DNA from: Flectonema sp. DT1601
Lineage: Eukaryota
Direction: 5' to 3'
NCBI GenBank assembly: GCA_964019425.1
Contig: OZ025781.1
Coordinates: 682,001 to 746,000 of the forward strand
Length of the DNA: 64,000 bases
Part shown: piece after piece, positions 26,827 to 53,642 of the stretch
How positions within the stretch are numbered: the first letter of the stretch is position 1
Layout of the letters: each line of letters begins with the position of its first letter
Made by a program: the position numbers and the translations under genes
The notes under the pieces: generated by a model
The model's database searches: none
The model's input: only the letters and a program-made list of their open reading frames with translations
Told to the model about the DNA's origin: nothing

Positions 26827-27010
26827 TTCCCTACCCCATGCGTAATTTCAATGGAGAATTGTAGTAGTGATATCGGGGGTGATGTACTATTTAACTTCGG
26901 TAAATTTACTTAACGAAGCACAACATTAATAACTTCTTAGAGACAAAAATATTATTTAATCACCTATTGCAGGCATCAACCTCAACTTAATAAATGAACG
27001 GGTTTGCTAA

Positions 27011-31439: not shown

Positions 31440-32237
31440 TGATGTACTAAACATACCATGCACCACTCTGATGTTTCATGATTGATATGGTTACACACAC
31501 ACAAATATTTTATGCTGATTGACTCTCTCATTCTCTCTCTCTGGTATTTGATTTCCTGTTCTACATGAAGTTCCCCACCCATGGGTAAATTCCATGGTGA
31601 ATTGTATCCCATCAGTTCGTCATGGGAGAACCCATGGAAGATTCTTTTCCCTACTTTTGATTTTCCACAGCTGTCTCACTTCCATTATCCTCACTAACCA
31701 CATGATGTACTAAACATACCATGCACCACTCTGATGTTTCATGATTGATATGGTTACACACACACAAATATTTTATGCTGATTAACTCTCTCTTTCTCTC
31801 TCTCTGGTATTTTTGATTTCCTGTTCTACAAGAAGTTCCCCACCCATGGGTAAATTCCATGGTGAATTGCATCCCATCAGTTCGTCATGGGAGAACCCAT
31901 GGAAGATTCTGTTCTCACTTCTGCTTTTCCACAGCTGTCTCACTTTCGTTGTCTTCACCAACCACATGATGTACTAAACATACCATGCACCACTCTGATG
32001 TTTCATGATTGATATGGTTACACACACACAAATATTTTATGCTGATTGACTCTCTCTTCCTCTCTCTCTGGTATTTTTGATTACCTGTTCTACATGAAGT
32101 TCCCCACCCATGGGTAAATTCCATGGTGAATTGTATCCCATCAGTTCGTCATGGGAGAACCCATGGAAGATTCTGTTCCCTACTTCTTCTTTTCCACAGC
32201 TGTCTCACTTCCATTGTCCTCACCAACCACCTGATGT
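31440..32237. repeat. Second array of the same satellite (3 units)
   Basis: Unit starts at 31440, 31703 and 31967; ends at tgatgt 32232-32237. Confidence 0.97.
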
Positions 32238-32658: not shown

Positions 32659-35600
32659 ATGCAAGTTTTTGTGACGTGTCCGGATTTGGGATTCCCTGCG
32701 GTGTCAGTCACGGTTGGTGCTGATTCTGTTGTGAGCGACGTGTTGATGGAAGCGGCTGGCGAGTGGGATGTCGATGCGGAGGAAGTTGTACTGTTGTTCG
32801 CTGGTGATGTCCTTTGTGAAAGTGAGCGGCTGGCAGATCATGGAGTGGGTGGAGACAGCGAGTTGGAAATGCGGAAGAAGCTGATTCGGATCTTCGGTAA
32901 AAACTGGTTTGTTGATGATAGAAAAAGGGAGATGCTGCTTCTTTGGATTAGAGATCACAATACGGAGGATTTATATCTGGACACTCTCACATTCTTGGAG
33001 GATGGTTGCCTCACTGTTGACAAAAGATTGCTTCCTTCAGATGCCAAACGGATTTCCTTCCGCCATTCAAACTCCAACAGCACGGTCATCTCACAAGTTA
33101 CTTCTATTGAAGATTTCTTTTTATCTAATTGTTCACAAATCACTTCTGTTGACCTTTCAGGTCTTAGTAGTGTCACCAGTATTGGATATCGTTTTTTGTC
33201 TGATTGTTCAGAAATCACTTCTCTTGACCTTTCAGGTCTTAGTAGTGTCACTAGTATTAAAGATTATTTTTTGTCTAGTTGTTCAGAAATCACTTCTCTT
33301 GACCTTTCAGGTCTCAGTAGTGTCACCAGTATTGGAAATCATTTTTTGTCTAGTTGTTCAAAAATCACTTCTCTTGACCTTTCAGGTCTTATTAGTGTCA
33401 CCAGTATTGGAAATTGTTTTTTGTCTTGGTGTTCAGAAATCACTTCTGTTAACCTTTCAGGTCTTAGTAGTGTCATCAATATTGGAAGTAATTTTTTGTC
33501 TTATTGTCAAAAAATCACTTCTCTTGACCTTTCAGGTCTTAGTAGTGTCACCAGAATTGGAGATTGTTTTTTGTCTTGGTGTTCACAAATAACTTCTGTT
33601 GACCTTTCAGGTCTTAGTAGTGTCACCAGTATTGGATATCGTTTTTTGTCTGATTGTTCAGAAATCACTTCTCTTGACCTTTCAGGTCTTAGTAGTGTCA
33701 CTAGTATTAAAGATTATTTTTTGTCTAGTTGTTCAGAAATCACTTCTCTTGACCTTTCAGGTCTCAGTAGTGTCACCAGTATTGGAAATCATTTTTTGTC
33801 TAGTTGTTCAAAAATCACTTCTCTTGACCTTTCAGGTCTTATTAGTGTCACCAGTATTGGAAATTGTTTTTTGTCTTGGTGTTCAGAAATCACTTCTGTT
33901 AACCTTTCAGGTCTTAGTAGTGTCATCAATATTGGAAGTAATTTTTTGTCTTATTGTCAAAAAATCACTTCTCTTGACCTTTCAGGTCTTAGTAGTGTCA
34001 CCAGAATTGGAGATTGTTTTTTGTCTTGGTGTTCACAAATAACTTCTGTTGACCTTTCAGGTCTTAGTAGTGTCACCAGTATTGGATATCGTTTTTTCTC
34101 TGAGTGTTCAGAAATCACTTCTCTTGACCTTTCAGGTCTTAGTAGTGTCACCAGTATTAGAAATCATTTTTTGTCTGATTGTTCAGAAATCACTTCTCTT
34201 GAACTTTCAGGTCTTAGTAGTGTCACTAGTATTGAAGGTTGTTTTTTGTCTAGTTGTTCAGAAATCACTTCTCTTGACCTTTCAGGTCTTAGTAGTGTCA
34301 CCAGTATTGGAAATTGTTTTTTGTCTAGTTGTTCAGAAATCACTTCTCTTGACCTTTCAGGTCTTAGTAGTGTCACCAGTATTGGAAATTGTTTTTTGTC
34401 TAGTTGTTCAGAAATCACTTCTCTTGACCTTTCAGGTCTTAGTAGTGTCATCAGTATTGGAAATCTTTTTTTGTCTAGTTGTTCAAAAATCACTTCTCTT
34501 GACCTTTCAGGTCTTAGTAGTGTCATCAGTATTGGAAATCTTTTTTTGTCTAGTTGTTCAGAAATCACTTCTCTTGACCTTTCAGGTCTTAGTAGTGTCA
34601 CCAGTATTGGAGATTGTTTTTTGTCTGAGTGTTCAGAAATCACTTCTCTCGACCTTTCAGGTCTTAGTAGTGTCACCAGTATTGGAGATTGTTTTTTGTC
34701 TGAGTGTTCAGAAATCACTTCTGTTAACCTTTCAGGTCTTAGTAGTGTCATCAATATTGGAAGTAATTTTTTGTCTTATTGTCAAAAAATCACTTCTCTT
34801 GACCTTTCAGGTCTTAGTAGTGTCACCAGAATTGGAGATTGTTTTTTGTCTTGGTGTTCACAAATAACTTCTGTTGACCTTTCAGGTCTTAGTAGTGTCA
34901 CCAGTATTGGATATCGTTTTTTGTCTGATTGTTCAGAAATCACTTCTCTTGACCTTTCAGGTCTTAGTAGTGTCACTAGTATTAAAGATTATTTTTTGTC
35001 TAGTTGTTCAGAAATCACTTCTCTTGACCTTTCAGGTCTCAGTAGTGTCACCAGTATTGGAAATCATTTTTTGTCTAGTTGTTCAAAAATCACTTCTCTT
35101 GACCTTTCAGGTCTTATTAGTGTCACCAGTATTGGAAATTGTTTTTTGTCTTGGTGTTCAGAAATCACTTCTGTTAACCTTTCAGGTCTTAGTAGTGTCA
35201 TCAATATTGGAAGTAATTTTTTGTCTTATTGTCAAAAAATCACTTCTCTTGACCTTTCAGGTCTTAGTAGTGTCACCAGAATTGGAGATTGTTTTTTGTC
35301 TTGGTGTTCACAAATAACTTCTGTTGACCTTTCAGGTCTTAGTAGTGTCACCAGTATTGGATATCGTTTTTTCTCTGAGTGTTCAGAAATCACTTCTCTT
35401 GACCTTTCAGGTCTTAGTAGTGTCACCAGTATTAGAAATCATTTTTTGTCTGATTGTTCAGAAATCACTTCTCTTGAACTTTCAGGTCTTAGTAGTGTCA
35501 CTAGTATTGAAGGTTGTTTTTTGTCTAGTTGTTCAGAAATCACTTCTCTTGACCTTTCAGGTCTTAGTAGTGTCACCAGTATTGGAAATTGTTTTTTGTC

Positions 35601-36063
35601 TAGTTGTTCAGAAATCACTTCTCTTGACCTTTCAGGTCTTAGTAGTGTCATCAGTATTGGAAATCTTTTTTTGTCTAGTTGTTCAAAAATCACTTCTCTT
35701 GACCTTTCAGGTCTTAGTAGTGTCATCAGTATTGGAAATCTTTTTTTGTCTAGTTGTTCAGAAATCACTTCTCTTGACCTTTCAGGTCTTAGTAGTGTCA
35801 CCAGTATTGGAGATTGTTTTTTGTCTGAGTGTTCAGAAATCACTTCTCTCGACCTTTCAGGTCTTAGTAGTGTCACCAGTATTGGAGATTGTTTTTTGTC
35901 TGAGTGTTCAGAAATCACTTCTGTTGACCTTTCAGGTCTTAGTGATGTTGAAGAAATTGGTGTGGCCTTCTTCGATAATTGCAGTGCCCTGAAATCTGTT
36001 CAGCTGCCTGAAAATAATGGAGCTCTCTTTGAACCGTCTGTGAAAGCTGCGATTAATCATTAA
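32659..36063 (+). CDS. UBL-LRR protein copy 1: ubiquitin-like domain + 38 x 25-aa BspA/TpLRR-type repeats
   Basis: MQVFV..LLFAGDVL..RLADHGVGGDSELEM aligns by eye with ubiquitin; ITSLDLSGLSSVTSIGxxFLSxCSx units with exact 75-bp period from 33151 to 35926; C-cap ending AAINH. Confidence 0.92.
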   Translation: MQVFVTCPDLGFPAVSVTVGADSVVSDVLMEAAGEWDVDAEEVVLLFAGDVLCESERLADHGVGGDSELEMRKKLIRIFGKNWFVDDRKREMLLLWIRDHNTEDLYLDTLTFLEDGCLTVDKRLLPSDAKRISFRHSNSNSTVISQVTSIEDFFLSNCSQITSVDLSGLSSVTSIGYRFLSDCSEITSLDLSGLSSVTSIKDYFLSSCSEITSLDLSGLSSVTSIGNHFLSSCSKITSLDLSGLISVTSIGNCFLSWCSEITSVNLSGLSSVINIGSNFLSYCQKITSLDLSGLSSVTRIGDCFLSWCSQITSVDLSGLSSVTSIGYRFLSDCSEITSLDLSGLSSVTSIKDYFLSSCSEITSLDLSGLSSVTSIGNHFLSSCSKITSLDLSGLISVTSIGNCFLSWCSEITSVNLSGLSSVINIGSNFLSYCQKITSLDLSGLSSVTRIGDCFLSWCSQITSVDLSGLSSVTSIGYRFFSECSEITSLDLSGLSSVTSIRNHFLSDCSEITSLELSGLSSVTSIEGCFLSSCSEITSLDLSGLSSVTSIGNCFLSSCSEITSLDLSGLSSVTSIGNCFLSSCSEITSLDLSGLSSVISIGNLFLSSCSKITSLDLSGLSSVISIGNLFLSSCSEITSLDLSGLSSVTSIGDCFLSECSEITSLDLSGLSSVTSIGDCFLSECSEITSVNLSGLSSVINIGSNFLSYCQKITSLDLSGLSSVTRIGDCFLSWCSQITSVDLSGLSSVTSIGYRFLSDCSEITSLDLSGLSSVTSIKDYFLSSCSEITSLDLSGLSSVTSIGNHFLSSCSKITSLDLSGLISVTSIGNCFLSWCSEITSVNLSGLSSVINIGSNFLSYCQKITSLDLSGLSSVTRIGDCFLSWCSQITSVDLSGLSSVTSIGYRFFSECSEITSLDLSGLSSVTSIRNHFLSDCSEITSLELSGLSSVTSIEGCFLSSCSEITSLDLSGLSSVTSIGNCFLSSCSEITSLDLSGLSSVISIGNLFLSSCSKITSLDLSGLSSVISIGNLFLSSCSEITSLDLSGLSSVTSIGDCFLSECSEITSLDLSGLSSVTSIGDCFLSECSEITSVDLSGLSDVEEIGVAFFDNCSALKSVQLPENNGALFEPSVKAAINH

Positions 36064-37933
36064 ATGTAAAGTGTTGAATTGATTCTTGGTTGTCATGTAT
36101 TTTATATTTTTAATGTTTTGTTGTCAATAAAACGTGGTATCAACTTTTACCAAGTGACGAGACCTCGGAATCTATGATTCTCCTCGCGTCTCATCACTTC
36201 TCTTCCGATGATATTATTCTGCCAAGTTATCTTTTTTTCCCTGAGCGTTTGCTAGTAATACTGTTTGCGATTATGCAAAAATCTACGTCTGTTTTCTGAG
36301 TAATCTTTTTTTTTTGTTCCGACGAAGTCGGAAAAGAAACTATTCAGATTGAAAGTCGATATTTCTTATGGTCATGATTAATTTTCACCATGCGACAGGA
36401 TTTTGTCCCCCCGAATTGCCAGATTCGACAACGTCTTCTGGTCAGTAAGACGAAAAATAGTTTTTTTTTCATTTTTATGTTTTCTTTTTTGTTTTTTCTA
36501 AACGTAATTATTCTTTGATTAACAATTACAAATATTTTTCAGTCAAGTACTTGATATTAATTTTGTTTTTAATACCTAAAGTTATTACTGTTTTTACATT
36601 GTAAAAGTAGCACCCCATGCGACAGGATTTTATCTGTGTTTAACGAAATATAAGGCTGATCTGAATGGTTTTTTTGTACTTATTTTGTTTCACACCCCGT
36701 CCTTGGATCTGACAGGTATTTTTCAGTTGAGTACTTTGATATTAATTTAATTTTAATACCAAAATTCCATGTTGGTAACGTGCCGCTAACAATGAATGAA
36801 GAGGGAGAAAAGCTTCTGTTTGGTTGGGTCAACCAACTGAACGTTTCTCCGCCGATATCGGGACGGAAATTATTTACAAGATATTCGTAAAATGTATCAA
36901 GCGAAAGTTATTTTGTAGTGTTCATTCTTTTATCAGACTTTCAAGCCTTTCCCCGTTTTCAATAATAAATCTTAATCCCACCCGCCATTCCTCGTAGTGC
37001 CGATCCTCCCCAAGGGAAGATCGGCACATTAATGTTCATGAAGCAGATACTCTAAGGCAGACGTCTACTCGTCGTCAAGGGTAGACCGCCAAGTTGACGA
37101 CCCTATATGTATATGATTACCGAGTGAATTGTTTTCTATCCTTCATCATCATCTTTCTTTCTTCAGGTGCAAAAAGAATGCAATAGTTGATTACCGAGTA
37201 CAACAAAGTTTTTATATTTATCACTCTAATTTACTAACTCAGTAGATGTAAATTCATGTAGCGTTGGTGCATCAAAGTAGTTGAGAATTTGAATCGAAAC
37301 TGCCTCAAAGATTCTGTTTTTAAGTTGTCAAAGTTTCACCCCAACCTTCGGATTTAATAAAAGAGCTGTTTTATTATTTTTAATATAAGCTAACTCATTT
37401 GTTTGAAAAAAATGATTTCCAATTAATGTCTTTGCTGAAAAAACCCGTCGATGCCACCACCCCGACATTATTTGTTAGGATTATACAGCCCCCTCATGTT
37501 TTCTAACTGAATTCTGGATAACACTACCATAATTTATGTAAAGTGAGTACTCCGCTATTAGTGTTACTACGAACTAGCAATATGGGTAGGCCATCAAATC
37601 CTGATGGATAGATTAGGGGGGTGTGTGTCCTGTCGGTTCCGAATGTGAAATCTATTACAATTAATGAAGACTTGGTTGTGGATTTACTTATTAATTTATT
37701 AGAGGATTCAGACATTCTAGTTTTTAGAGAAGAGCAAGACGGGTCATGTTATTTTATAGGAAATTACAACTACAGAATATGTTGCACTATTCAGGAATCG
37801 AAGCTGCTTTTCAGTTTTTCCTTATTACTTTACGATTGTTGCCGCCGTTTTGGAACACTTCATCAATATTAATAAACCTTTTCGTCTCTCAGTAGATTAC
37901 TAAAAAAAAGGAAAACAAAAAACAACAACAACA
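36064..37933. repeat. Conserved intergenic spacer of the UBL-LRR tandem unit (also 48818-50687, 53643-55401, 57682-59500)
   Basis: Four near-identical copies of 1870, 1870, 1759 and 1819 bp; the third has an internal deletion, the fourth lacks the segment just before the ATG. Confidence 0.95.
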
Positions 37934-40220
37934 ATGCAAGTTTTTGTGACGTGTCCGGATTTAGGATTCCCTGCGGTGTCAGTCACGGTTGGTGCTGATT
38001 CTGTTGTGAGCGACGTGTTGATGGAAGCGGCTGGCGAGTGGGATGTCGATGCGGAGGAAGTTGTACTGTTGTTCGCTGGTGATGTCCTTTGTGAAAGTGA
38101 GCGGCTGGCAGATCATGGAGTGGGTGGAGACAGCGAGTTGGAAATTCGGAAGAAGCTGATTCGGATCTTCGGTAAAAACTGGTTTGTTGATGATAGAAAA
38201 AGGGAGATGCTGCTTCTTTGGATTAGAGATCACAATACGGAGGATTTATATCTGGACACTCCCACATTCTTGGAGGATGGTTGCCTCACTATTGACAAAA
38301 GATTGCTTCCTTCAGATGCCAAACGGATTTCCTTCCGCCATTCAAACTCCAACAGCACGGTCATCTCACAAGTTACTTCTATTGAAGATTTCTTTTTATC
38401 TGAGTGTTCAGAAATCACTTCTGTTGACCTTTCAGGTCTTAGTAGTATCACCAGTATTGGAGATGATTTTTTGTCTTATTGTTCAAAAATCACTTCTGTT
38501 GACCTTTCAGGTCTTAGTAGTGTCACCAGTATTGGAAATCATTTTTTATTTCGTTGTTCAGAAATCACTTCTCTTGACCTTTCAGGTCTTAGTAGTGTCA
38601 CCAGTATTGGAAATCATTTTTTATTTCGTTGTTCAGAAATCACTTCTGTTGACCTTTCAGGTCTTATTGGTATCACCAGTATTGAAAATTACTTTTTAAA
38701 TAATTGTTTACAAATCACTTCTGTTGACCTTTCAGGTCTTAGTAGTGTCACCAGTATTGGATATCATTTTTTGTCTGAGTGTTCAGAAATCACTTCTCTT
38801 GACCTTTCAGGTCTTAGTAGTGTCACCAGTATTGGAGATTATTTTTTGTCTAGTTGTTCAGAAATCACTTCTCTTGACCTTTCAGGTCTTAGTAGTGTCA
38901 CTAGTATTAAAGATTATTTTTTGTCTAGTTGTTCAGAAATCACTTCTCTTGACCTTTCAGGTCTTAGTAGTGTCATCAGTATTGGAAATCTTTTTTTGTC
39001 TAGTTGTTCAAAAATCACTTCTCTTGACCTTTCAGGTCTTATTAGTGTCACCAGTATTGGAAATTGTTTTTTGTCTTGGTGTTCAGAAATCACTTCTGTT
39101 AACCTTTCAGGTCTTAGTAGTGTCATCAATATTGGAAGTAATTTTTTGTCTTATTGTCAAAAAATCACTTCTCTTGACCTTTCAGGTCTTAGTAGTGTCA
39201 CCAGAATTGGAGATTGTTTTTTGTCTTGGTGTTCACAAATAACTTCTGTTGACCTTTCAGGTCTTAGTAGTGTCACCAGTATTGGATATCGTTTTTTCTC
39301 TGAGTGTTCAGAAATCACTTCTCTTGACCTTTCAGGTCTTAGTAGTGTCACCAGTATTAGAAATCATTTTTTGTCTGATTGTTCAGAAATCACTTCTCTT
39401 GAACTTTCAGGTCTTAGTAGTGTCACTAGTATTGAAGGTTGTTTTTTGTCTAGTTGTTCAGAAATCACTTCTCTTGACCTTTCAGGTCTTAGTAGTGTCA
39501 TCAGTATTGGAAATTGTTTTTTGTCTTGGTGTTCACAAATAACTTCTGTTGACCTTTCAGGTCTTAGTAGTGTCACCAGTATTGGATATCGTTTTTTCTC
39601 TGAGTGTTCAGAAATCACTTCTCTTGACCTTTCAGGTCTTAGTAGTGTCACCAGTATTAGAAATCATTTTTTATTTCGTTGTTCAGAAATCACTTCTCTT
39701 GACCTTTCAGGTCTTAGTAGTGTCACCAGTATTAAAAGTTCTTTTTTGTCTTATTGTTCAGAAATCACTTCTCTTGACCTTTCAGGTCTTAGTAGTGTCA
39801 CCAGTATTAAAAGTTCTTTTTTGTCTTATTGTTCAGAAATCACTTCTCTTGACCTTTCAGGTCTTAGTAGTGTCACCAGTATTGGATATCAATTTTTGTC
39901 TAATTGTTCAGAAATCACTTCTGTTGACCTTTCAGGTCTTAGTAGTGTCACTAGTATTGGAAATGATTTTTTATTTCGTTGTTCAGAAATCACTTCTCTT
40001 GACCTTTCAGGTCTTAGTAGTGTCACCAGTATTAAAAGTTCTTTTTTGTCTTATTGTTCAGAAATCACTTCTCTTGACCTTTCAGGTCTTAGTAGTGTCA
40101 CCAGTATTGGATATCAATTTTTGTCTAATTGTTCAGAAATCACTTCTGTTGACCTTTCAGGTCTTAGTAGTGTCACCAGTATTGGAGATTGTTTTTTGTC
40201 TTATTGTTCAGAAATCACTT
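37934..40220 (+). CDS. UBL-LRR copy 2, 5' part (24 repeats), interrupted by and fused in frame to retrotransposon ORF1
   Basis: Same UBL and LRR units; repeats stop at gaaatcactt (40220) while the frame stays open to 43243. Confidence 0.88.
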
Positions 40221-40288
40221 GGGATCACGACACCTGCCTCCTCGCGGCGGTCCCGGACGACTTCGATAGGGGTCGACAAAACAGTGTC
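40221..40288 (+). ncRNA. HDV-like self-cleaving ribozyme (predicted)
   Basis: P1 GGGAUC/GGUCCC, P2 GACAC(C)U/AGUGUC, P3 GCC/GGC with L3 UCCUCGC, GG for P1.1, P4 CGACUUC-GAUA-GGGGUCG, J4/2 ACAAAAC; starts at the first base of the element. Confidence 0.8.
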
Positions 40289-40576
40289 AAACACAAGAGA
40301 TGCCAACAACATCAAAACCATCAAAACCAGCTACAACATCCAGAGCATACAAACCCTGGCTTGTCAAATAAAGAACGGAATAAACTAGCCCATGCCTTGA
40401 ATGGCAATGGTGGACCAGGAAAGGACAGCAGAGACCGACGCCCGCGAGACGATACTCGCGACAGGGACGAAAACCGTCCAAACAAGGAGGAACGTCGCAT
40501 AGCGAAGCTCGAGAAAGAGAAACTCGACTCGCTAGACGAGATAGAGGAAGAGAAGCAACGACTGGGGCAGCAGAGA

Positions 40577-43243: not shown

Positions 43244-43285
43244 CCGGCGGAGGACGGAAGGAACTGGGCGGAGACACGGAGACGT

Positions 43286-43327
43286 CTCCTGCTACAAGCT
43301 GGCGACGTTGAGAGGAACCCCGGACCG
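43286..43327 (+). other. 2A-like (StopGo) ribosomal skipping peptide LLLQAGDVERNPG/P
   Basis: Translation from 43244 gives PAEDGRNWAETRRRLLLQAGDVERNPGPRPRIDGLTVGTINV, matching D(V/I)ExNPGP, in frame with both ORFs. Confidence 0.9.
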
Positions 43328-46300
43328 AGACCACGAATCGATGGGCTCACCGTGGGAACAATCAATGTCACCACACTAGAAGGAAAAATAGATGCCATCA
43401 CAGATCTGAACCTAGATCTGATAGCTCTACAGGAAACTTCTCTGACGGGCCCACAGCAACGCCAGATGAAAAAACAGCTCGGTGAGAGAGGATGGGAAGC
43501 GACGTTCGGGTTAGAGTGCAAATTACTAACCGATGGGCAAAAGACGTGGACGGCGGCGGGAGGCGTGGCCATCTTGACGCGCACTGGTACACCGGTGAGA
43601 AGGATAAAACACGATCGGCTCGACAACACGGGACGATTCGTACACGCGGGAGTGTCGTACGGAAATGGCAAGGTACTGCACGTTTTCTCGTTCTACGGAG
43701 ACGTACGTTCGGCGGTCTACACGGAAGAGTTGATTGCGGAGATGCTCGTGGAAGCAGCAGCTCTGGGTGATGTTCCCGTATTTATAGCGGGGGACTTCAA
43801 CGTCGAAACAACGGAATCGCCGGCGCTTCTGTCGGCTTTCGCACACGGACTCTGGATAGATGCCGCCGTCTCGATGGGAAACATGACACCGACAAGCGAA
43901 GCGGGAAAAGGACTTCGTAGAATCGATGCGATTCTGATGAACCGCGGGGCGGCGACAGCAATCTCGAATGACACAACGATCCATGTGCATAAGAGTGAGC
44001 TGATCCCGACACACAAGCCGGTCATCATTAGAAAGCTCAACATCTCACGCTACAACGAGAAGGCTCCTAGGCTGATAGTACCGAAACAGTTGGATACCTC
44101 CGAGACAACGGACCCGAGTGAGGGGAAGGCCGAAAGGCAACTCCACTGGACGCGAGCTGTAGCGACGGAAGATCCTGACAAGATGCTGGAGGCGCTTGGA
44201 GAGATCATCGAAAGATACCTTCTGACGGGAAAGCTGGAGATAAGTAACCCAGCCAAGTACAAGGGACGCGGGAAGAAGCGTGAGCCTGTGATGTGGACGA
44301 ACGCGGCGAAACAAGACGGGAGAGGAGCGACGTGCAGGGAAACGCGGAGAAGACTGCAGAAGATACGTGTTCTGGAGGAAGTGATGAAAATCACAAAGCA
44401 ACGCGATGGTCCGACGGTGCCGTCCCACGAAGTAATGAAACTCTGGAAAAAATTACGAAAACTCGATCCGACGACGGGATCCGAAATACCACAGACGGAG
44501 GAGCTTCGGATACTACTACAACAAGCGAGACAGGAGCAAGCGATAGAAAGCAAGAAGCTCCGAACTGAACGCATCCGCATGTGGAAACGGAATGTTGTCG
44601 ACAATTGGAATGACGACCGCACGAAGGTTTTCCAGTGGATCAGGAACGTCGAGCAATCGAAGACTGTTCTGATGGAAAAGGCAGATGGAAGCTGGACGGC
44701 CAACTGCTCCGAGATGGATGAGGCCATGCACGCGGCATGGGACCCCATACTCAAAAAGTACTTATCAGACCCGGAACCAGACTGGATGAAGTTCGAAGAA
44801 CGGTACAGCAACTACATCGAGGAACACCCGATGCGATGCGAAGATATCACCGGGGAGGACGTTGCAAAAGCCCTCAGAAGGACTAGCTCGCGCAAAGCAG
44901 CTGGGGTAGACGGCTTCAGGATATCGGAGCTCAAGTCGCTACCGGAGGACATGATCCAGATGATAGCGGAATTCTACAACATAGTGGAGAGAACACACTG
45001 GCCGGAAGCACTTCTCACGGCACTGGTGTCGGCCATACCCAAAGGGGCAGGGACGAAACCACTGGAGCAGAGACCCATTACGGTGACATCCGCACTCTAC
45101 AGGCTATGGGGCTGTATACGTATGGAAAAGGATGTAATGGAGTGGCAAGAGAAGTGGGCTCACGACGGGCAGTACGGCTACCGGAAGGGGAGATCTACGC
45201 TCGACCTCAGCTGGAAGATAGCACTAGACGTGGAACACGCAACTCTCTACGGAGAAGAGATTGCTGGAGTGACCACGGACTTCAGGAAGTGTTTTGACCT
45301 GATCCCGCACGACATCCTCCTGAAATTAGTGAAGGAATTGGGCCTAAGTGATAAGATCCTGAAAACTGTGACGGATGTCTACCGGCGACTCAGAAGGAGA
45401 TTCAAGTTCCCGAGCGGCGTCGGAGAAGAATTTGCCACCACCAACGGAATACTGCAAGGATGCCCGCTCAGCGTGGTGCTCTTCAATGCGCTGAGCTCGA
45501 TACTCAGCAAAGCAATCGAGAGGGAAGCCGATGTGACGCCCGGATCGTATGCGGACGACCTGACATTGTTTGGATCACGAACGAAGCTACAAGAAGGCGT
45601 AGAAGTCGTTGCGGAGTTCTGCACCCTGACCGGACAAGAACTCGCGCCTCAGAAATGCAAGTGGTTCTCGAACAGAGACCAGGGCCAGACCAACATCACA
45701 ATGGGGGACACAACACTGGACTTCGATGACAGTGTCGATATCGTGGGATGCCACCTCAGTATGAAAGGAACCACCAAGCAGATGGGGAGGATCACGGAAG
45801 AAGTGCTCGATAGAGCGAGGCGAATCCAGTTACTTCCGCTCAGATACCAAGCGAAGGAACAGATAGCTGCAGCTAGTGTCATGCCCAAGGCGCTCTTCGG
45901 AACGGCACTGTACGATCCCGATGCGACGCGACTCGGACTGCTGAGAAGAGCAATGGCAACGGGGATTTTCCGCAAACTTGGAGGGAAAAGAACTAAGATG
46001 TCGCACACCATGGGCCTAACGCTACTCTGCAAGGGACATTGTGTGGATCCCGCGACGTACATTAGGTACAACAGACTCCTTGCACTCACCAGAATGCTAC
46101 CGAAGCTAACTGAGAGGATACGCAGGGTATGGGAACACCTGCAAGAGCACACTGAAGCGACGAGAGGACCAGTCGGCCTCGCCCTGAGTACTCTGAAGGA
46201 ACTTGGATGGGAATGGTCAACTTTCTCGGTCTTCGAAGGTCCGGGAGGGACGACCGAACACGGAAGGCTGGATGCGGGGCGCTGGCGGCACGATGTCAGA

Positions 46301-47980
46301 GAGGCGTGCAGGCGTTTCACCTGGAACAAAACAATTGCGGAAACGAGACGGGTAAACCTGAGAGGTATTGAAGCGGGCATCGACCGGAAAGAGACCCTGA
46401 AGGTCCTGAAGGAAGGAAAGGGCGACCCCTACCTGCGCGGAGTAGTGAAGCACTGCCTCCTGGACAACGTGTACACTGGCTCGATGAAGGCGGGAAACAA
46501 GAACTGCGCGCACTGCGAGGAGGTTGACGACGTAGAGAGGACGGAGACCCTCGAGCACGTGAACTGGGATTGCAGAGCTTATGACACAATCCGACAGGAA
46601 TACCCGCAAGTGATGCTACAAGTTCGAAGCGATTGGCCCAATTGCCTGAGGCTACTCGGCATCAAGCCCGACAATGTGGAACTGCCGGCGGGGCTCACCG
46701 GAGACCTACAACGAATGTTCGCACGGATCAGGCTCCGCAGGGACGACTACCAACAACTGGAGGAGAGACGGCTGACGGTTGTGGAATACGCTGGGAACAA
46801 GGAACCGGAAGTAGTTATGCGATACAACAACAAACTGGAAAAGTACATGCCAGTATACACCCAATGGCCCGAAGCCCTTGGATTGACCTTGTACTTAGCG
46901 CTTGCGAGCTACCTGAGGGAACTGAAGTGGCCTCGACAGCCAGACGGGGTCGGAGTCACCTTCCTGGAATTAGCGATCGACTTCGAAGCGTATGCGGGGG
47001 TTGACATACCGACCACAGTCCACGAAGGCCACGTAGCGAAGTGCACCAAAGACAGAGCCGCCGGGAAGAAAGCTGACGTCATGTGTGGACTGATGCTAAG
47101 ATTGAACTTGGTTCACAAGCATTTAGAAGGCGAGGAACAAAGAACCTTTCCCGACTACTGCGTAGGAAGCAACAAAGCCTTACGTCCACTAGGAGCCCCG
47201 GTACTGAAAGGTTTGAAGAAACGACCAGCTTTTCTGATGGGAGACGAAACAGTAGACACAATTCGGAGGACGGTCCAGGAGGCGAACGACGGAAAAGCTG
47301 ACAAAATCAGATTCGGCTTCGAGACTGAGTGCAGGCACTCGAGCGAGAGGGAAGGGAGAGCGGAGAAATGGATAACCGCGGCACGACTTTTCCCATCAAA
47401 GGAAAAAGACGTACAGCTGAGGAGGGAGCTCTGCGAGCGAGGACCGACACGCCCGCCACCCGAGGTCGTCAAGAGACCGGGCATCGCGGAGGGACAAGGA
47501 ACGATGAACTCGACGTGCTACGGACACTTCAAGAAGAAATGCAATAGTTGTCGACGGGCCGGAAACACCATCTACCAGTGCTGCCACAACCATCACACTC
47601 TGGGGGATGAAGATGGACAAATACCGATATGGGACTTTTGCAGCAAGCACAAGCTTACTCCATGTGCAGTCTGCATAGTGATCGGCAGAGGATCTGAGCA
47701 ATGTTGCAGAAACAGCCACCACCGATGCCGTCACCACGAGATGGCTCCCTGCAACGACTGCAAGCGGAATCCGGATCCGGAACAACGGACTGCCACGAAA
47801 TGCTGCAACAAAAAGCATCACGGGCCAATTATAAGGACGTTGACGAGGAGGGCGAAGCAGCCGACGAAGCATGATATGCAAACCAGCACATCGCTTCTAA
47901 AATTAGGTTTCACCAAACAAATGAAACCGAAAGCAGAGGAAACCCCGGAAAGGGAACCACAGGACAAGGGGTTAACTTAG
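43325..47980 (+). CDS. Retrotransposon ORF2: APE endonuclease + reverse transcriptase + CCHC knuckle + Cys/His repeats (start given at the 2A proline)
   Basis: APE: GTINV, IALQET, GGVAIL, IAGDFN, RIDAIL, PTH. RT: AAGVDG, RPITV, QYGYRKGRS, DFRKCFD, GILQGCPLS, YADD. CAHC..ETLEHVNWDC knuckle. No stops or frameshifts. Confidence 0.95.
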   Translation, partial: PRPRIDGLTVGTINVTTLEGKIDAITDLNLDLIALQETSLTGPQQRQMKKQLGERGWEATFGLECKLLTDGQKTWTAAGGVAILTRTGTPVRRIKHDRLDNTGRFVHAGVSYGNGKVLHVFSFYGDVRSAVYTEELIAEMLVEAAALGDVPVFIAGDFNVETTESPALLSAFAHGLWIDAAVSMGNMTPTSEAGKGLRRIDAILMNRGAATAISNDTTIHVHKSELIPTHKPVIIRKLNISRYNEKAPRLIVPKQLDTSETTDPSEGKAERQLHWTRAVATEDPDKMLEALGEIIERYLLTGKLEISNPAKYKGRGKKREPVMWTNAAKQDGRGATCRETRRRLQKIRVLEEVMKITKQRDGPTVPSHEVMKLWKKLRKLDPTTGSEIPQTEELRILLQQARQEQAIESKKLRTERIRMWKRNVVDNWNDDRTKVFQWIRNVEQSKTVLMEKADGSWTANCSEMDEAMHAAWDPILKKYLSDPEPDWMKFEERYSNYIEEHPMRCEDITGEDVAKALRRTSSRKAAGVDGFRISELKSLPEDMIQMIAEFYNIVERTHWPEALLTALVSAIPKGAGTKPLEQRPITVTSALYRLWGCIRMEKDVMEWQEKWAHDGQYGYRKGRSTLDLSWKIALDVEHATLYGEEIAGVTTDFRKCFDLIPHDILLKLVKELGLSDKILKTVTDVYRRLRRRFKFPSGVGEEFATTNGILQGCPLSVVLFNALSSILSKAIEREADVTPGSYADDLTLFGSRTKLQEGVEVVAEFCTLTGQELAPQKCKWFSNRDQGQTNITMGDTTLDFDDSVDIVGCHLSMKGTTKQMGRITEEVLDRARRIQLLPLRYQAKEQIAAASVMPKALFGTALYDPDATRLGLLRRAMATGIFRKLGGKRTKMSHTMGLTLLCKGHCVDPATYIRYNRLLALTRMLPKLTERIRRVWEHLQEHTEATRGPVGLALSTLKELGWEWSTFSVFEGPGGTTEHGRLDAGRWRHDVREACRRFTWNKTIAETRRVNLRGIEAGIDRKETLKVLKEGKGDPYLRGVVKHCLLDNVYTGSMKAGNKNCAHCEEVDDVERTETLEHVNWDCRAYDTIRQEYPQVMLQVRSDWPNCLRLLGIKPDNVELPAGLTGDLQRMFARIRLRRDDYQQLEERRLTVVEYAGNKEPEVVMRYNNKLEKYMPVYTQWPEALGLTLYLALASYLRELKWPRQPDGVGVTFLELAIDFEAYAGVDIPTTVHEGHVAKCTKDRAAGKKADVMCGLMLRLNLVHKHLEGEEQRTFPDYCVGSNKALRPLGAPVLKGLKKRPAFLMGDETVDTIRRTVQEANDGKADKIRFGFETECRHSSEREGRAEKWITAARLFPSKEKDVQLRRELCERGPTRPPPEVVKRPGIAEGQGTMNSTCYGHFKKKCNSCRRAGNTIYQCCHNHHTLGDEDGQIPIWDFCSKHKLTPCAVCIVIGRGSEQCCRNSHHRCRHHEMAPCNDCKRNPDPEQRTATKCCNKKHHGPIIRTLTRRAKQPTKHDMQTSTSLLKLGFTKQMKPKAEETPEREPQDKGLT

Positions 47981-48054
47981 GTTGGCCGAACCAGTGCCTC
48001 GTCATCTCACCGTGCTAGCAAGCCTGAATGACAGCACTCAAAATGGTACATATA

Positions 48055-48817
48055 TTGGTGTTCACAAATAACTTCTGTTGACCTTTCAGGTCTTAGTAGT
48101 GTCACCAGTATTGGATATCGTTTTTTCTCTGAGTGTTCAGAAATCACTTCTCTTGACCTTTCAGGTCTTAGTAGTGTCACCAGTATTAGAAATCATTTTT
48201 TGTCTGATTGTTCAGAAATCACTTCTCTTGAACTTTCAGGTCTTAGTAGTGTCACTAGTATTGAAGGTTGTTTTTTGTCTAGTTGTTCAGAAATCACTTC
48301 TCTTGACCTTTCAGGTCTTAGTAGTGTCACCAGTATTGGAAATTGTTTTTTGTCTAGTTGTTCAGAAATCACTTCTCTTGACCTTTCAGGTCTTAGTAGT
48401 GTCATCAGTATTGGAAATCTTTTTTTGTCTAGTTGTTCAAAAATCACTTCTCTTGACCTTTCAGGTCTTAGTAGTGTCATCAGTATTGGAAATCTTTTTT
48501 TGTCTAGTTGTTCAGAAATCACTTCTCTTGACCTTTCAGGTCTTAGTAGTGTCACCAGTATTGGAGATTGTTTTTTGTCTGAGTGTTCAGAAATCACTTC
48601 TCTCGACCTTTCAGGTCTTAGTAGTGTCACCAGTATTGGAGATTGTTTTTTGTCTGAGTGTTCAGAAATCACTTCTGTTGACCTTTCAGGTCTTAGTGAT
48701 GTTGAAGAAATTGGTGTGGCCTTCTTCGATAATTGCAGTGCCCTGAAATCTGTTCAGCTGCCTGAAAATAATGGAGCTCTCTTTGAACCGTCTGTGAAAG
48801 CTGCGATTAATCATTAA
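48055..48817 (+). pseudogene. Orphaned 3' part of a UBL-LRR gene (9 repeats + C-cap) downstream of the retrotransposon
   Basis: Matches 35301-36063 of copy 1 (both 763 bp); has no start codon of its own. Confidence 0.88.
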
Positions 48818-50687
48818 ATGTAAAGTGTTGAATTGATTCTTGGTTGTCATGTATTTTATATTTTTAATGTTTTGTTGTCAATAAAACGTGGTATCAACTT
48901 TTACCAAGTGACGAGACCTCGGAATCTATGATTCTCCTCGCGTCTCATCACTTCTCTTCCGATGATATTATTCTGCCAAGTTATCTTTTTTTCCCTGAGC
49001 GTTTGCTAGTAATACTGTTTGCGATTATGCAAAAATCTACGTCTGTTTTCTGAGTAATCTTTTTTTTTTGTTCCGACGAAGTCGGAAAAGAAACTATTCA
49101 GATTGAAAGTCGATATTTCTTATGGTCATGATTAATTTTCACCATGCGACAGGATTTTGTCCCCCCGAATTGCCAGATTCGACAACGTCTTCTGGTCAGT
49201 AAGACGAAAAATAGTTTTTTTTTCATTTTTATGTTTTCTTTTTTGTTTTTTCTAAACGTAATTATTCTTTGATTAACAATTACAAATATTTTTCAGTCAA
49301 GTACTTGATATTAATTTTGTTTTTAATACCTAAAGTTATTACTGTTTTTACATTGTAAAAGTAGCACCCCATGCGACAGGATTTTATCTGTGTTTAACGA
49401 AATATAAGGCTGATCTGAATGGTTTTTTTGTACTTATTTTGTTTCACACCCCGTCCTTGGATCTGACAGGTATTTTTCAGTTGAGTACTTTGATATTAAT
49501 TTAATTTTAATACCAAAATTCCATGTTGGTAACGTGCCGCTAACAATGAATGAAGAGGGAGAAAAGCTTCTGTTTGGTTGGGTCAACCAACTGAACGTTT
49601 CTCCGCCGATATCGGGACGGAAATTATTTACAAGATATTCGTAAAATGTATCAAGCGAAAGTTATTTTGTAGTGTTCATTCTTTTATCAGACTTTCAAGC
49701 CTTTCCCCGTTTTCAATAATAAATCTTAATCCCACCCGCCATTCCTCGTAGTGCCGATCCTCCCCAAGGGAAGATCGGCACATTAATGTTCATGAAGCAG
49801 ATACTCTAAGGCAGACGTCTACTCGTCGTCAAGGGTAGACCGCCAAGTTGACGACCCTATATGTATATGATTACCGAGTGAATTGTTTTCTATCCTTCAT
49901 CATCATCTTTCTTTCTTCAGGTGCAAAAAGAATGCAATAGTTGATTACCGAGTACAACAAAGTTTTTATATTTATCACTCTAATTTACTAACTCAGTAGA
50001 TGTAAATTCATGTAGCGTTGGTGCATCAAAGTAGTTGAGAATTTGAATCGAAACTGCCTCAAAGATTCTGTTTTTAAGTTGTCAAAGTTTCACCCCAACC
50101 TTCGGATTTAATAAAAGAGCTGTTTTATTATTTTTAATATAAGCTAACTCATTTGTTTGAAAAAAATGATTTCCAATTAATGTCTTTGCTGAAAAAACCC
50201 GTCGATGCCACCACCCCGACATTATTTGTTAGGATTATACAGCCCCCTCATGTTTTCTAACTGAATTCTGGATAACACTACCATAATTTATGTAAAGTGA
50301 GTACTCCGCTATTAGTGTTACTACGAACTAGCAATATGGGTAGGCCATCAAATCCTGATGGATAGATTAGGGGGGTGTGTGTCCTGTCGGTTCCGAATGT
50401 GAAATCTATTACAATTAATGAAGACTTGGTTGTGGATTTACTTATTAATTTATTAGAGGATTCAGACATTCTAGTTTTTAGAGAAGAGCAAGACGGGTCA
50501 TGTTATTTTATAGGAAATTACAACTACAGAATATGTTGCACTATTCAGGAATCGAAGCTGCTTTTCAGTTTTTCCTTATTACTTTACGATTGTTGCCGCC
50601 GTTTTGGAACACTTCATCAATATTAATAAACCTTTTCGTCTCTCAGTAGATTACTAAAAAAAAGGAAAACAAAAAACAACAACAACA

Positions 50688-53642
50688 ATGCAAGTTTTTG
50701 TGACGTGTCCGGATTTAGGATTCCCTGCGGTGTCAGTCACGGTTGGTGCTGATTCTGTTGTGAGCGACGTGTTGATGGAAGCGGCTGGCGAGTGGGATGT
50801 CGATGCGGAGGAAGTTGTACTGTTGTTCGCTGGTGATGTCCTTTGTGAAAGTGAGCGGCTGGCAGATCATGGAGTGGGTGGAGACAGCGAGTTGGAAATT
50901 CGGAAGAAGCTGATTCGGATCTTCGGTAAAAACTGGTTTGTTGATGATAGAAAAAGGGAGATGCTGCTTCTTTGGATTAGAGATCACAATACGGAGGATT
51001 TATATCTGGACACTCCCACATTCTTGGAGGATGGTTGCCTCACTATTGACAAAAGATTGCTTCCTTCAGATGCCAAACGGATTTCCTTCCGCCATTCAAA
51101 CTCCAACAGCACGGTCATCTCACAAGTTACTTCTATTGAAGATTTCTTTTTATCTGAGTGTTCAGAAATCACTTCTGTTGACCTTTCAGGTCTTAGTAGT
51201 ATCACCAGTATTGGAGATGATTTTTTGTCTTATTGTTCAAAAATCACTTCTGTTGACCTTTCAGGTCTTAGTAGTGTCACCAGTATTGGAAATCATTTTT
51301 TATTTCGTTGTTCAGAAATCACTTCTCTTGACCTTTCAGGTCTTAGTAGTGTCACCAGTATTGGAAATCATTTTTTATTTCGTTGTTCAGAAATCACTTC
51401 TGTTGACCTTTCAGGTCTTATTGGTATCACCAGTATTGAAAATTACTTTTTAAATAATTGTTTACAAATCACTTCTGTTGACCTTTCAGGTCTTAGTAGT
51501 GTCACCAGTATTGGATATCATTTTTTGTCTGAGTGTTCAGAAATCACTTCTCTTGACCTTTCAGGTCTTAGTAGTGTCACCAGTATTGGAGATTATTTTT
51601 TGTCTAGTTGTTCAGAAATCACTTCTCTTGACCTTTCAGGTCTTAGTAGTGTCACTAGTATTAAAGATTATTTTTTGTCTAGTTGTTCAGAAATCACTTC
51701 TCTTGACCTTTCAGGTCTTAGTAGTGTCATCAGTATTGGAAATCTTTTTTTGTCTAGTTGTTCAAAAATCACTTCTCTTGACCTTTCAGGTCTTATTAGT
51801 GTCACCAGTATTGGAAATTGTTTTTTGTCTTGGTGTTCAGAAATCACTTCTGTTAACCTTTCAGGTCTTAGTAGTGTCATCAATATTGGAAGTAATTTTT
51901 TGTCTTATTGTCAAAAAATCACTTCTCTTGACCTTTCAGGTCTTAGTAGTGTCACCAGAATTGGAGATTGTTTTTTGTCTTGGTGTTCACAAATAACTTC
52001 TGTTGACCTTTCAGGTCTTAGTAGTGTCACCAGTATTGGATATCGTTTTTTCTCTGAGTGTTCAGAAATCACTTCTCTTGACCTTTCAGGTCTTAGTAGT
52101 GTCACCAGTATTAGAAATCATTTTTTGTCTGATTGTTCAGAAATCACTTCTCTTGAACTTTCAGGTCTTAGTAGTGTCACTAGTATTGAAGGTTGTTTTT
52201 TGTCTAGTTGTTCAGAAATCACTTCTCTTGACCTTTCAGGTCTTAGTAGTGTCATCAGTATTGGAAATTGTTTTTTGTCTTGGTGTTCACAAATAACTTC
52301 TGTTGACCTTTCAGGTCTTAGTAGTGTCACCAGTATTGGATATCGTTTTTTCTCTGAGTGTTCAGAAATCACTTCTCTTGACCTTTCAGGTCTTAGTAGT
52401 GTCACCAGTATTAGAAATCATTTTTTGTCTGATTGTTCAGAAATCACTTCTCTTGAACTTTCAGGTCTTAGTAGTGTCACTAGTATTGAAGGTTGTTTTT
52501 TGTCTAGTTGTTCAGAAATCACTTCTCTTGACCTTTCAGGTCTTAGTAGTGTCATCAGTATTGGAAATTGTTTTTTGTCTTGGTGTTCACAAATAACTTC
52601 TGTTGACCTTTCAGGTCTTAGTAGTGTCACCAGTATTGGATATCGTTTTTTCTCTGAGTGTTCAGAAATCACTTCTCTTGACCTTTCAGGTCTTAGTAGT
52701 GTCACCAGTATTAGAAATCATTTTTTGTCTGATTGTTCAGAAATCACTTCTCTTGAACTTTCAGGTCTTAGTAGTGTCACTAGTATTGAAGGTTGTTTTT
52801 TGTCTAGTTGTTCAGAAATCACTTCTCTTGACCTTTCAGGTCTTAGTAGTGTCATCAGTATTGGAAATTGTTTTTTGTCTAGTTGTTCAGAAATCACTGC
52901 TCTTGACCTTTCAGGTCTTAGTAGTGTCATCAGTATTGGAAATCTTTTTTTGTCTTGTTGTTCAAAAATCACTTCTCTTGACCTTTCAGGTCTTAGTAGT
53001 GTCACCAGTATTGGAAATTGTTTTTTGTCTAGTTGTTCAGAAATCACTGCTCTTGACCTTTCAGGTCTTAGTAGTGTCATCAGTATTGGAGATGATTTTT
53101 TGTCTTGTTGTTCAAAAATCACTTCTCTTGACCTTTCAGGTCTTAGTAGTGTCATCAGTATTGGAAATCTTTTTTTGTCTTGTTGTTCAAAAATCACTTC
53201 TCTTGACCTTTCAGGTCTTAGTAGTGTCACCAGTATTGGAAATTGTTTTTTATTTAGTTGTTCAGAAATCACTTCTCTTGACCTTTCAGGTCTTAGTAGT
53301 GTCACCAGTATTGGAAATCATTTTTTATTTCGTTGTTCAGAAATGACTTCTCTCGACCTTTCAGGTCTTAGTAGTGTCACCAGTATTGGAGATTGTTTTT
53401 TGTCTGAGTGTTCAGAAATCACTTCTCTCGACCTTTCAGGTCTTAGTAGTGTCACCAGTATTGGAGATTGTTTTTTGTCTGAGTGTTCAGAAATCACTTC
53501 TGTTGACCTTTCAGGTCTTAGTGATGTTGAAGAAATTGGTGTGGCCTTCTTCGATAATTGCAGTGCCCTGAAATCTGTTCAGCTGCCTGAAAATAATGGA
53601 GCTCTCTTTGAACCGTCTGTGAAAGCTGCGATTAATCATTAA
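50688..53642 (+). CDS. UBL-LRR protein copy 3 (32 repeats)
   Basis: Intact 984-aa ORF with the same architecture as copy 1. Confidence 0.92.
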   Translation: MQVFVTCPDLGFPAVSVTVGADSVVSDVLMEAAGEWDVDAEEVVLLFAGDVLCESERLADHGVGGDSELEIRKKLIRIFGKNWFVDDRKREMLLLWIRDHNTEDLYLDTPTFLEDGCLTIDKRLLPSDAKRISFRHSNSNSTVISQVTSIEDFFLSECSEITSVDLSGLSSITSIGDDFLSYCSKITSVDLSGLSSVTSIGNHFLFRCSEITSLDLSGLSSVTSIGNHFLFRCSEITSVDLSGLIGITSIENYFLNNCLQITSVDLSGLSSVTSIGYHFLSECSEITSLDLSGLSSVTSIGDYFLSSCSEITSLDLSGLSSVTSIKDYFLSSCSEITSLDLSGLSSVISIGNLFLSSCSKITSLDLSGLISVTSIGNCFLSWCSEITSVNLSGLSSVINIGSNFLSYCQKITSLDLSGLSSVTRIGDCFLSWCSQITSVDLSGLSSVTSIGYRFFSECSEITSLDLSGLSSVTSIRNHFLSDCSEITSLELSGLSSVTSIEGCFLSSCSEITSLDLSGLSSVISIGNCFLSWCSQITSVDLSGLSSVTSIGYRFFSECSEITSLDLSGLSSVTSIRNHFLSDCSEITSLELSGLSSVTSIEGCFLSSCSEITSLDLSGLSSVISIGNCFLSWCSQITSVDLSGLSSVTSIGYRFFSECSEITSLDLSGLSSVTSIRNHFLSDCSEITSLELSGLSSVTSIEGCFLSSCSEITSLDLSGLSSVISIGNCFLSSCSEITALDLSGLSSVISIGNLFLSCCSKITSLDLSGLSSVTSIGNCFLSSCSEITALDLSGLSSVISIGDDFLSCCSKITSLDLSGLSSVISIGNLFLSCCSKITSLDLSGLSSVTSIGNCFLFSCSEITSLDLSGLSSVTSIGNHFLFRCSEMTSLDLSGLSSVTSIGDCFLSECSEITSLDLSGLSSVTSIGDCFLSECSEITSVDLSGLSDVEEIGVAFFDNCSALKSVQLPENNGALFEPSVKAAINH

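Follow-up and report, generated by a model that had tools for sequence, protein, structure and literature searches.

The 64-kb window analysed here (Flectonema sp. DT1601, assembly GCA_964019425.1, contig OZ025781.1, positions 682,001 to 746,000; all coordinates below count from the first base of this stretch) contains a tandem array of leucine-rich repeat (LRR) genes and, inside it, a full-length long interspersed nuclear element (LINE; 40221-48054, plus strand). The element lies in sense orientation and, as a first-pass annotation of the sequence had proposed, exactly at the joint of a 4.4-kb direct duplication. According to the list of open reading frames (ORFs), Pfam matches, and a table of repeat units, the LRR genes form a head-to-tail family on the plus strand, in which each member has a ubiquitin-like N-terminus followed by BspA-type LRR units of 25 aa. 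The first-pass annotation had called them receptor genes, a label for which this architecture gives no basis. Gene A (32659-36063; identified by its ORF, its Pfam LRR_5 match, and the unit table) is intact, combines the ubiquitin-like N-terminus with 38 BspA-type units, and carries no element at 35300/35301. Its match to LRR_5 (PF13306) has an expectation (E) value of 9.9e-128, and that of the fusion between gene B and the element one of 1.2e-72. Gene B is represented by its 5' part (37934-40220), which is cut by the element and whose frame continues into the first ORF of the element (ORF1), resulting in a 1769-codon open frame (37934-43243). On the far side of the element, the unit table places an orphan 3' fragment of gene A (48055-48817), consisting of the final 8.5 LRR units and the C-terminus, and gene B2 (50688-53642), an intact copy of gene B that has its initial 1739 bp in common with B.

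The two copies of the duplication, 35301-39672 and 48055-52426 (both plus strand, offset 12754), agree at all of the 4372 positions when compared directly, which confirms the first reading of this repeat, and the exact match cannot be extended by even one base at either end. The left copy contains the 3' part of gene A, a 1870-bp spacer, and the initial 1739 bp of gene B. As originally described, the right copy adjoins the element's 3' end (48054/48055), with no base in between. Inter-gene spacers elsewhere in the array are 99.0%-99.4% identical (four pairwise comparisons) vs. 100% over the 1870 bp of the duplicated pair, and the duplication is therefore either not real or of much more recent origin than the other parts of the array. 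Beyond 39672, a further 548 bp (39673-40220 vs. 52427-52974 in gene B2) align in register at the same offset with 83%-96% identity, which, judged by the alignment, is the generic unit-to-unit similarity of LRRs; past 40220, similarity at this offset falls to background.

The left boundary of the duplication is an in-register switch within a 12-nt stretch common to the RNH and NHFLFRC unit types. It lies in a region where genes A and B coincide: positions 35288-35447 of A equal 39513-39672 of B exactly (160 bp), and 35288-35575 of A equal 52267-52554 of B2 exactly (288 bp). Because of this A/B identity at the joint, the final 147 bp of the left copy are also the first 147 bp of the right copy, and a 147-bp direct repeat (39526-39672, an exact match to both 48055-48201 and 35301-35447; plus strand) forms the left flank of an 8382-bp insert composed of 548 bp of foreign LRR units and the 7834-bp element. 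At an offset of 4225 bp, genes A and B have a single long stretch of identity (288 bp); the joint falls within it, and the insert divides it into parts of 160 and 275 bp. One way to describe the locus is as a tandem duplication with a period of 4225 bp and a putative joint inside this 288-bp stretch, and the lengths add up (4225 + 8382 + 147 = 12754). Given the 147-bp flanking repeat and a 4225-bp unequal exchange, a stagger of 4.4 kb is not required. A long-stagger model without imported units, which would yield a 4920-bp target-site duplication, was ruled out since the odd units are missing from the right copy.

These odd units, 7.3 in number, occupy the interval between the left copy and the element (39673-40220, plus strand) and keep the 75-bp register, running in the order FLFRC, KSSF, KSSF, GYQF, (ND)FLFRC, KSSF, GYQF, and GDCFLSYCSEIT in the unit table. 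Across the 125 units tabulated, the three KSSF units find their best match elsewhere at 70 of 75 positions and the two GYQF units at 71 of 75, vs. a median of 74 of 75 for ordinary units of A, B, and B2. Within the window, the diagnostic k-mers of the KSSF and GYQF types occur only in 39731-40124. The first-pass annotation had regarded all these variants as unique in the window. This holds for the KSSF and GYQF units, which on unit similarity and k-mer content are foreign to it, but not for the FLFRC type, which is present at six further sites in B, B2, and D (38534, 38609, 51288, 51363, 53313, and 56977) and of which only the N-D variant is private.

Evidence for a preferred target comes from the 5' ends of related copies in a protein collection. 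The ORFs of this collection were called upstream to the first start codon, and copies with ORF1 fused to a host gene therefore expose their 5' flank. Two of the six members of the ORF1 cluster (P0010 and P0018) extend to the element's 5' end, and the remaining four start at an internal methionine and are uninformative. With a slash marking the junction, P0010 reads GDYFLYTCERIT/WDHDTC in a protein from a related genome, P0018 reads GNSFLYRCSRIT/WDHDTC in a complete gene of the same MQVFVTCPDLG family, also from a related genome, and the window copy reads GDCFLSYCSEIT/WDHDTC at 40220/40221. A search of the protein collection found ORF1 of this LINE family fused to LRRs in the P0010 cluster only. 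Thus, all three visible 5' junctions (two of them seen as proteins) fall at the same base, in sense orientation and in frame, in three different LRR genes, with the common pattern C-x-x-I-T/W-D-H-D-T-C. Independent copies at the same sequence, position, and orientation indicate, as far as the 5' junctions go, a LINE with target specificity for LRRs, and the proposal of an LRR-targeting element that inserts in sense and in the same register within the repeat unit was borne out at every visible 5' end.

The 3' junction is available for the window copy only (FLS/WCSQIT, 48054/48055). Relative to the repeat unit, its position is 20 bp upstream of that of the 5' junction, and from this offset a target-site duplication of 18-20 bp is predicted, two T's being ambiguous. 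The flanks of the window copy, the left one ending in GDCFLSYCSEIT and the right one starting with WCSQITSVDL, cover the same 20-bp unit register and agree at 15 of 20 positions. The right flank continues as gene A from 35301, whereas the left flank is gene B followed by foreign units. By this comparison, a simple insertion does not account for the flanks.

The element is 7834 bp long, has a GC content of 50%-56% in a context of 36%, and ends without a poly(A) tail; its extent was taken from sequence composition and boundaries, and no other fragments of it were found in the 64-kb window. ORF1 (40223-43243, plus strand; 1006 codons) is open from element base 3 in the frame of the upstream LRR gene, has its first methionine at codon 118, and encodes a glutamine-rich coiled-coil middle part and a conserved C-terminal half before it ends at a TGA. 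The 117-codon frame ahead of the first methionine stays open in 220 of 20,000 composition-matched shuffles. No Pfam family was found in ORF1, and the AlphaFold model of its C-terminal part is poor (mean predicted local distance difference test score (pLDDT) of 55, predicted template modelling score (pTM) of 0.29). ORF2 (43244-47980, plus strand) encodes a putative apurinic/apyrimidinic endonuclease (APE) domain (~43556-43960), a reverse transcriptase (~45059-45685), and a Cys/His-rich C-terminus, as located by Pfam and a PDB search. The reverse transcriptase is well supported by its RVT_1 match (E = 1.1e-23, 84.5 bits vs. a cut-off of 29.6). For the endonuclease, Exo_endo_phos at ORF2 residues 31-165 scores 18.7 bits (E = 0.0015), which is below the 24.5 cut-off, and PF03372 is found in the precomputed Pfam annotation of the relatives P0001-P0004. 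Among solved structures, human L1 ORF2p (4e-17) ranks ahead of R2 (2.8e-10). The first-pass annotation had drawn on R2 as its model, but the N-terminal APE domain, the two ORFs, and a reverse transcriptase closer to human L1 ORF2p than to R2 speak against a likeness in kind; by domain content the element is classified as a probable APE-type LINE and not as an R2-type element.

Close relatives of the element are present in a related assembly, where intact 1542-aa copies of ORF2 differ from it at only 6-8 (P0019, P0020, and P0032) or 23 (P0001) of 1541 aligned residues. The ORF2 cluster of that assembly has 22 member sequences, four of the 15 listed being full length, and two full-length ORF2 copies are located on a single 492,556-bp contig. 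More distant ORF2 relatives (28%-57% identical) were recovered at 10 loci in a metagenome scan.

The boundary between the two ORFs suggests a mode of expression that relies on recoding. A 2A/StopGo motif of the form D-x-E-x-N-P-G-P (as the definition is quoted in PMC3894237) is present in the ORF2 frame just ahead of the endonuclease domain. This motif, DVERNPGP (43304-43327, plus strand; motif match), follows the ORF1 TGA by 20 codons in the same frame and without an intervening ATG; the base next to the TGA is a C, and the TGA, the 20 codons, the motif, and the APE domain all share one frame (43225-43345). With TGA acting as a stop here, ORF2 would need read-through followed by 2A skipping, and this is the mode of expression that we predict from the arrangement. 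An alternative genetic code as explanation for the in-frame TGA was ruled out, as five of 17 host ORFs end in TGA. Another candidate 2A sequence, HPEHTNPGL near the N-terminus of ORF1, was rejected because neither the final P nor the D-x-E is present and because P0010 and P0018 do not conserve the sequence. In the metagenome relatives, 2A-like motifs occur ahead of the APE domain at two of the 10 loci (L001 and L007).

The first 68 nt of the element (40221-40288, plus strand) are predicted, from a descriptor scan and Rfam, to form a self-cleaving ribozyme of the hepatitis delta virus (HDV) type with its cut at 40220/40221, i.e. exactly at the boundary between LRR units and element, which agrees with the initial suggestion of such a ribozyme. 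A nested double pseudoknot, the C in J4/2, and a cut 5' of P1 can all be drawn, with helices (in element positions) P1 at 1-6/29-34, P2 at 9-13/64-68, P3 at 16-18/26-28, P1.1 at 20-21/35-36, and P4 at 38-41/52-55, a 7-nt L3 loop UCCUCGC, and the J4/2 C at position 57. The descriptor has a single plus-strand match in the 64 kb, starting at 40221, and it is loose, with nine matches on the minus strand and a mean of 4.0 per shuffled window. The 9-mer spanning L3 and P3 occurs once on the plus strand of the window, and it is this single-occurrence loop word together with the coincidence with the boundary that gives the ribozyme call its weight. An Rfam scan of 120 nt against 4227 families returned as its only matches RF00094 HDV_ribozyme (20.6 bits, E = 0.27, gathering threshold 50) and RF02682 HDV-F-prausnitzii (12.8 bits, gathering threshold 44); both of these weak alignments are full-length and place the cut at 40220/40221. 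A scan of 8.1 kb that covered the whole element returned no HDV family at E ≤ 1.

Conservation in this segment also points to a structured RNA. Among the three copies for which a 5' end is visible, the first 19 codons of ORF1, which overlie the predicted ribozyme, encode identical residues, and no part of the protein varies more than the next ~40 residues, which contain two in-frame indels. Read in another frame, the ribozyme nucleotides give LPPRGGPGRLR, which matches the N-termini MPPRGGLGRLRPTK (MPPRGG...) of the sister families P0011, P0013, and P0041. Since the match is found in a different frame, the conservation, as far as it can be deduced from proteins, would be at the RNA rather than the protein level. 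Taken together, we predict that the element starts with an HDV-like ribozyme capable of self-cleavage. None of the 10 metagenome loci has the ribozyme core at the 5' end, and an L3-like word is present at one of the 10, inside an ORF.

Regarding the origin of this arrangement, we lean tentatively, with confidence a little short of even, towards an insertion-linked duplication in which the 4372-bp copy was made in the same event as the LINE insertion, a refinement of the idea in the first-pass annotation. The LINE would be co-transcribed with its LRR host gene and normally be released by the predicted 5' ribozyme. An endonuclease nick on the bottom strand at the FLS/WCSQIT unit of gene A (35300/35301) would prime reverse transcription, and from a co-transcript that was left uncleaved, the complementary DNA (cDNA) would carry at least 548 nt of LRR units from upstream of the element at the donor locus. 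This LRR tail could then find its in-register partner not in gene A's own GYRFFSEC-RNHFL segment but in the identical one of the neighbouring gene B, on the sister or the same chromatid, and repair synthesis would copy 35301-39672 a second time. The expected product is an intact gene A, followed by a chimera of the B 5' part, foreign units, and element ORF1, then the orphan 3' end of A and an intact gene B2. Every step past the nick is one that we infer. Several observations are consistent with this scenario. The features to be expected of a LINE-mediated tandem duplication are found at the locus, where two direct copies meet at the element, the 3' end of which is at the proposed nick site, and are otherwise identical. 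Moreover, the duplication is the youngest in the array, as it shows zero differences in 4372 positions vs. 0.6%-1.0% between paralogous spacers. Two precedents have been described: L1 cDNA that invades the sister chromatid downstream of the integration site leads to a tandem duplication bridged by L1 (PMC7058536), and in R2 the upstream target (28S) sequence contained in the cDNA anneals to the target and primes second-strand synthesis (PMC3774820). The duplication is most likely, though not demonstrably, the element's own doing.

A number of points weigh against an insertion-linked duplication. The last LRR unit varies among the three known 5' flanks, and all of these flanks end exactly at the ribozyme cut, which suggests that normal insertions come without donor units; the segment that encodes the ribozyme is conserved. 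The claim that the element imports foreign repeats stands in so far as the KSSF and GYQF units are foreign to the window, but such carry-along is not the rule. A protein search for a donor locus with KSSF/GYQF units beside an element found none in a collection that lacks the window's genome, and the best match to the odd units as a protein query was only 58% identical (7998 candidates scored). Because the four LRR proteins of the window are themselves absent from this collection, these blank searches do not show that a donor is absent. The putative target-site duplication is deduced from unit register, and the activities of the ribozyme, the UGA read-through, and the 2A skipping are predictions. 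The LRR arrays are dynamic in their own right: within gene A, 33429-34375 and 34704-35650 form an exact 947-bp repeat, and several 300-bp blocks are likewise 100% identical. By these repeats, the arrays have been homogenised or expanded very recently, and unequal exchange is frequent and could be independent of the element. Finally, the structure rests on one assembly, and public contigs bridge the 5' junction only.

The last two points lead to the main rival explanations, each of which we consider unlikely, if worth weighing. The joint sits in the only long A/B identity at its offset, exact repeats of 300-947 bp inside gene A indicate that exchange or conversion is frequent and recent, and the WCSQIT unit type preferred by the element occurs about 10 times in the window. 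All of this would suit two independent events, an unequal crossover within the 288-bp A/B stretch that produced a 4225-bp duplication and a B/A hybrid and, before or after it, a coincident insertion into this very stretch of the element with its 548-bp leader and the 147-bp repeat. Such an insertion would have to strike about four of 125 units (~3%), or about one in 10 if WCSQIT units are the sole targets, and no point mutation may have arisen in the 4.4 kb since either event. With the insertion as the earlier event, an element-free homologue would be needed, as gene A is intact, and a separate source is still required for the odd units. An assembly artefact, which we judge improbable to a similar degree, would account for the perfect identity, because the 4372 bp would have been used twice when two haplotypes or near-identical arrays, one of them with the element, were threaded together, and double use of the same reads yields a perfect 4.4-kb identity. 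Spacers that are 99.0%-99.4% alike and LRR arrays that are hard to assemble add to this concern, as does the absence of the window's proteins from a large protein collection, which leaves no second assembly for comparison. However, reads extending leftward from the element via the 5' part of B and the spacer into the 3' end of A would already imply a second copy unless they were shorter than about 5 kb, and this second copy would be real because the spacer upstream of gene A has only its final 289 bp in common with the A-B spacer. Contigs of 0.5-1.3 Mb in the related assembly further suggest that long-read data are available for the group.

Sequencing run X1, which may share the source sample of the window (a fraction of 0.86 of words matched; contigs at a depth of ~2), bears on the assembly question in both directions; among the public runs that contain the window's sequence, none is listed as RNA. 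The 5' junction is bridged by a 1070-nt X1 contig with zero mismatches, a GYQF unit is also present in the run, and no joints were reported among X1 contigs over 34001-54000; the first two of these findings argue against an artefact. In contrast, X1 contigs leave 47562-48667 (including the 3' junction) and, in a closer comparison over 39501-40420, the KSSF-specific bin 39718-39748 without cover, and there is no specific support at 39672/39673, where the sole contig across is 57 nt long, has one mismatch, and could equally derive from the unit at 38534. The alternative of ectopic recombination between two elements, already raised in the first-pass annotation, appears far less probable than either of these explanations. 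A crossover between one element at 35300/35301 in gene A and another in a B allele with the odd units on the opposite homologue would yield exactly the observed topology, and the family, which by its 5' junctions targets these arrays, is multi-copy and 99.5%-99.7% identical, a good substrate for recombination, with two full-length ORF2 copies on one contig of the related assembly. Yet four recent events would be needed with no substitution arising in 4.4 kb: an insertion into each of two neighbouring genes, on opposite homologues, a structurally different B allele, and the crossover itself. Had both elements been on the same chromosome, three elements would be expected in the product, and the window has one.

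If the duplication was a by-product of element insertion, this locus would be a clean, heritable, non-cancer case in which a LINE has given rise to both a duplicated gene and a chimeric repeat gene, the event being marked by a 548-bp imported block. A more far-reaching reading, which we consider doubtful at best, is that the LINE is an obligate passenger of LRR genes, which it would use for its transcription and perhaps its translation, and that upon ribozyme failure it shuffles LRR blocks between paralogues and triggers local duplications. The basis offered for it is ORF1, which is open in frame from element base 3 with the first methionine 118 codons in. If true, a retroelement would be driving both cassette shuffling and gene duplication in a coding repeat family. 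Independently of this, a 75-bp coding unit that each of many genes contains in tens of copies would offer thousands of safe sites, each insertion resulting in an in-frame LRR-ORF1 fusion. The predicted ribozyme, the ORF open from the 5' end, and the ORF1-UGA-2A-ORF2 arrangement would combine three recoding or processing devices in one element.

Target-specific LINEs are found in rRNA, small-RNA, and spliced-leader genes, microsatellites, telomeres, and the retrotransposon hot spot (RHS) genes of trypanosomes. Searches of the open-access literature at the level of abstracts turned up no LINE that has a BspA-type or any other LRR coding repeat as its target. With the LRR coding repeat, the element described here adds a new target class to those of target-specific LINEs. 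The nearest described situation, by analogy, is that of ingi/RIME (L1Tc) in RHS genes, where APE-type LINEs likewise occupy a fixed site in a protein-coding multigene family, and where RHS gene halves and chimeric pseudogenes have been attributed to crossing-over upstream of the retroelement (PMC7563717). According to the respective reports, members of the L1Tc/ingi clade have a 5' HDV-like ribozyme (PMC4035085) and a 2A peptide (PMC3894237). The likeness drawn here is one of features, and there are differences: L1Tc/ingi elements have a single ORF with an N-terminal 2A, whereas the 2A of the window element follows ORF1 and an in-frame UGA, and the target in the window is a 75-bp tandem coding repeat with tens of sites per gene. 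In LINEs, 2A acquisition is described as correlating with the absence of ORF1 (PMC3894237), a trend from which the window element departs by having both.

Similarities to R2 of animal 28S ribosomal DNA are found in its biology. As summarised in PMC3774820, R2 inserts at one position of a tandemly repeated, transcribed target, is co-transcribed with it, and has a 5' HDV-like ribozyme that defines the 5' end of its RNA, and the upstream target sequence of its cDNA can anneal to prime second-strand synthesis; for the window element, the co-transcription, the ribozyme, and the annealing are predicted or proposed. R2 differs in having a single ORF with a C-terminal restriction-like endonuclease and a 28S target, in contrast to the two ORFs and the N-terminal APE-like domain of the window element, whose target is a protein-coding LRR unit that is entered in frame. 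The L1-bridged tandem duplications described from human tumours (PMC7058536) likewise have the element between the two copies, with its 3' end where the endonuclease cuts. They are somatic, on the scale of megabases, and dependent on a pre-existing break in that account, whereas the duplication in the window measures 4.2-4.4 kb, is part of a genome assembly, and is proposed to be guided by repeat homology. In L1 5' transduction, the upstream flank of a donor copy is carried to a new locus. The read-through proposed here would differ in that it stems from ribozyme failure in a host co-transcript and not from an upstream promoter.

Sister LINE families of the related assembly (P0012, P0037, P0046, and P0044) have a common ribozyme-encoding start and include 5'-truncated copies that follow runs of lysine codons, i.e. 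A-rich DNA, which suggests from the flanking sequence that this sister group may have a different, A-rich target. One sister-family copy has a partly duplicated 5' end. A 6325-nt contig of run X1, which covers 41385-47561, has 23 unaligned letters at its end that resemble an oligonucleotide used in cDNA amplification. If so, X1 may be a cDNA run, and the contig across the 5' junction may represent an uncleaved transcript of LRR units and element.

The LRR array continues to the right of B2 with gene D (55402-57681, plus strand; ORF list and unit table), the next intact member of the tandem family, and a fifth member (59501-60061, plus strand) that follows gene D and, by reading of the sequence, is truncated after two units by a frame break. 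All plausible long ORFs in the 64-kb window are on the plus strand, the listed minus-strand ORFs all falling within LRR arrays or the element, and in such a one-direction gene cluster co-transcription of a sense insertion would be easy. Just upstream of the LRR gene array, a 269/264-bp satellite is present at 20064-26827 and 31440-32237, with 25.3 and 3.0 copies, respectively, and 94%-95% matches; it has a strong C-over-G skew of about -0.30 and an internal (CT)n run.

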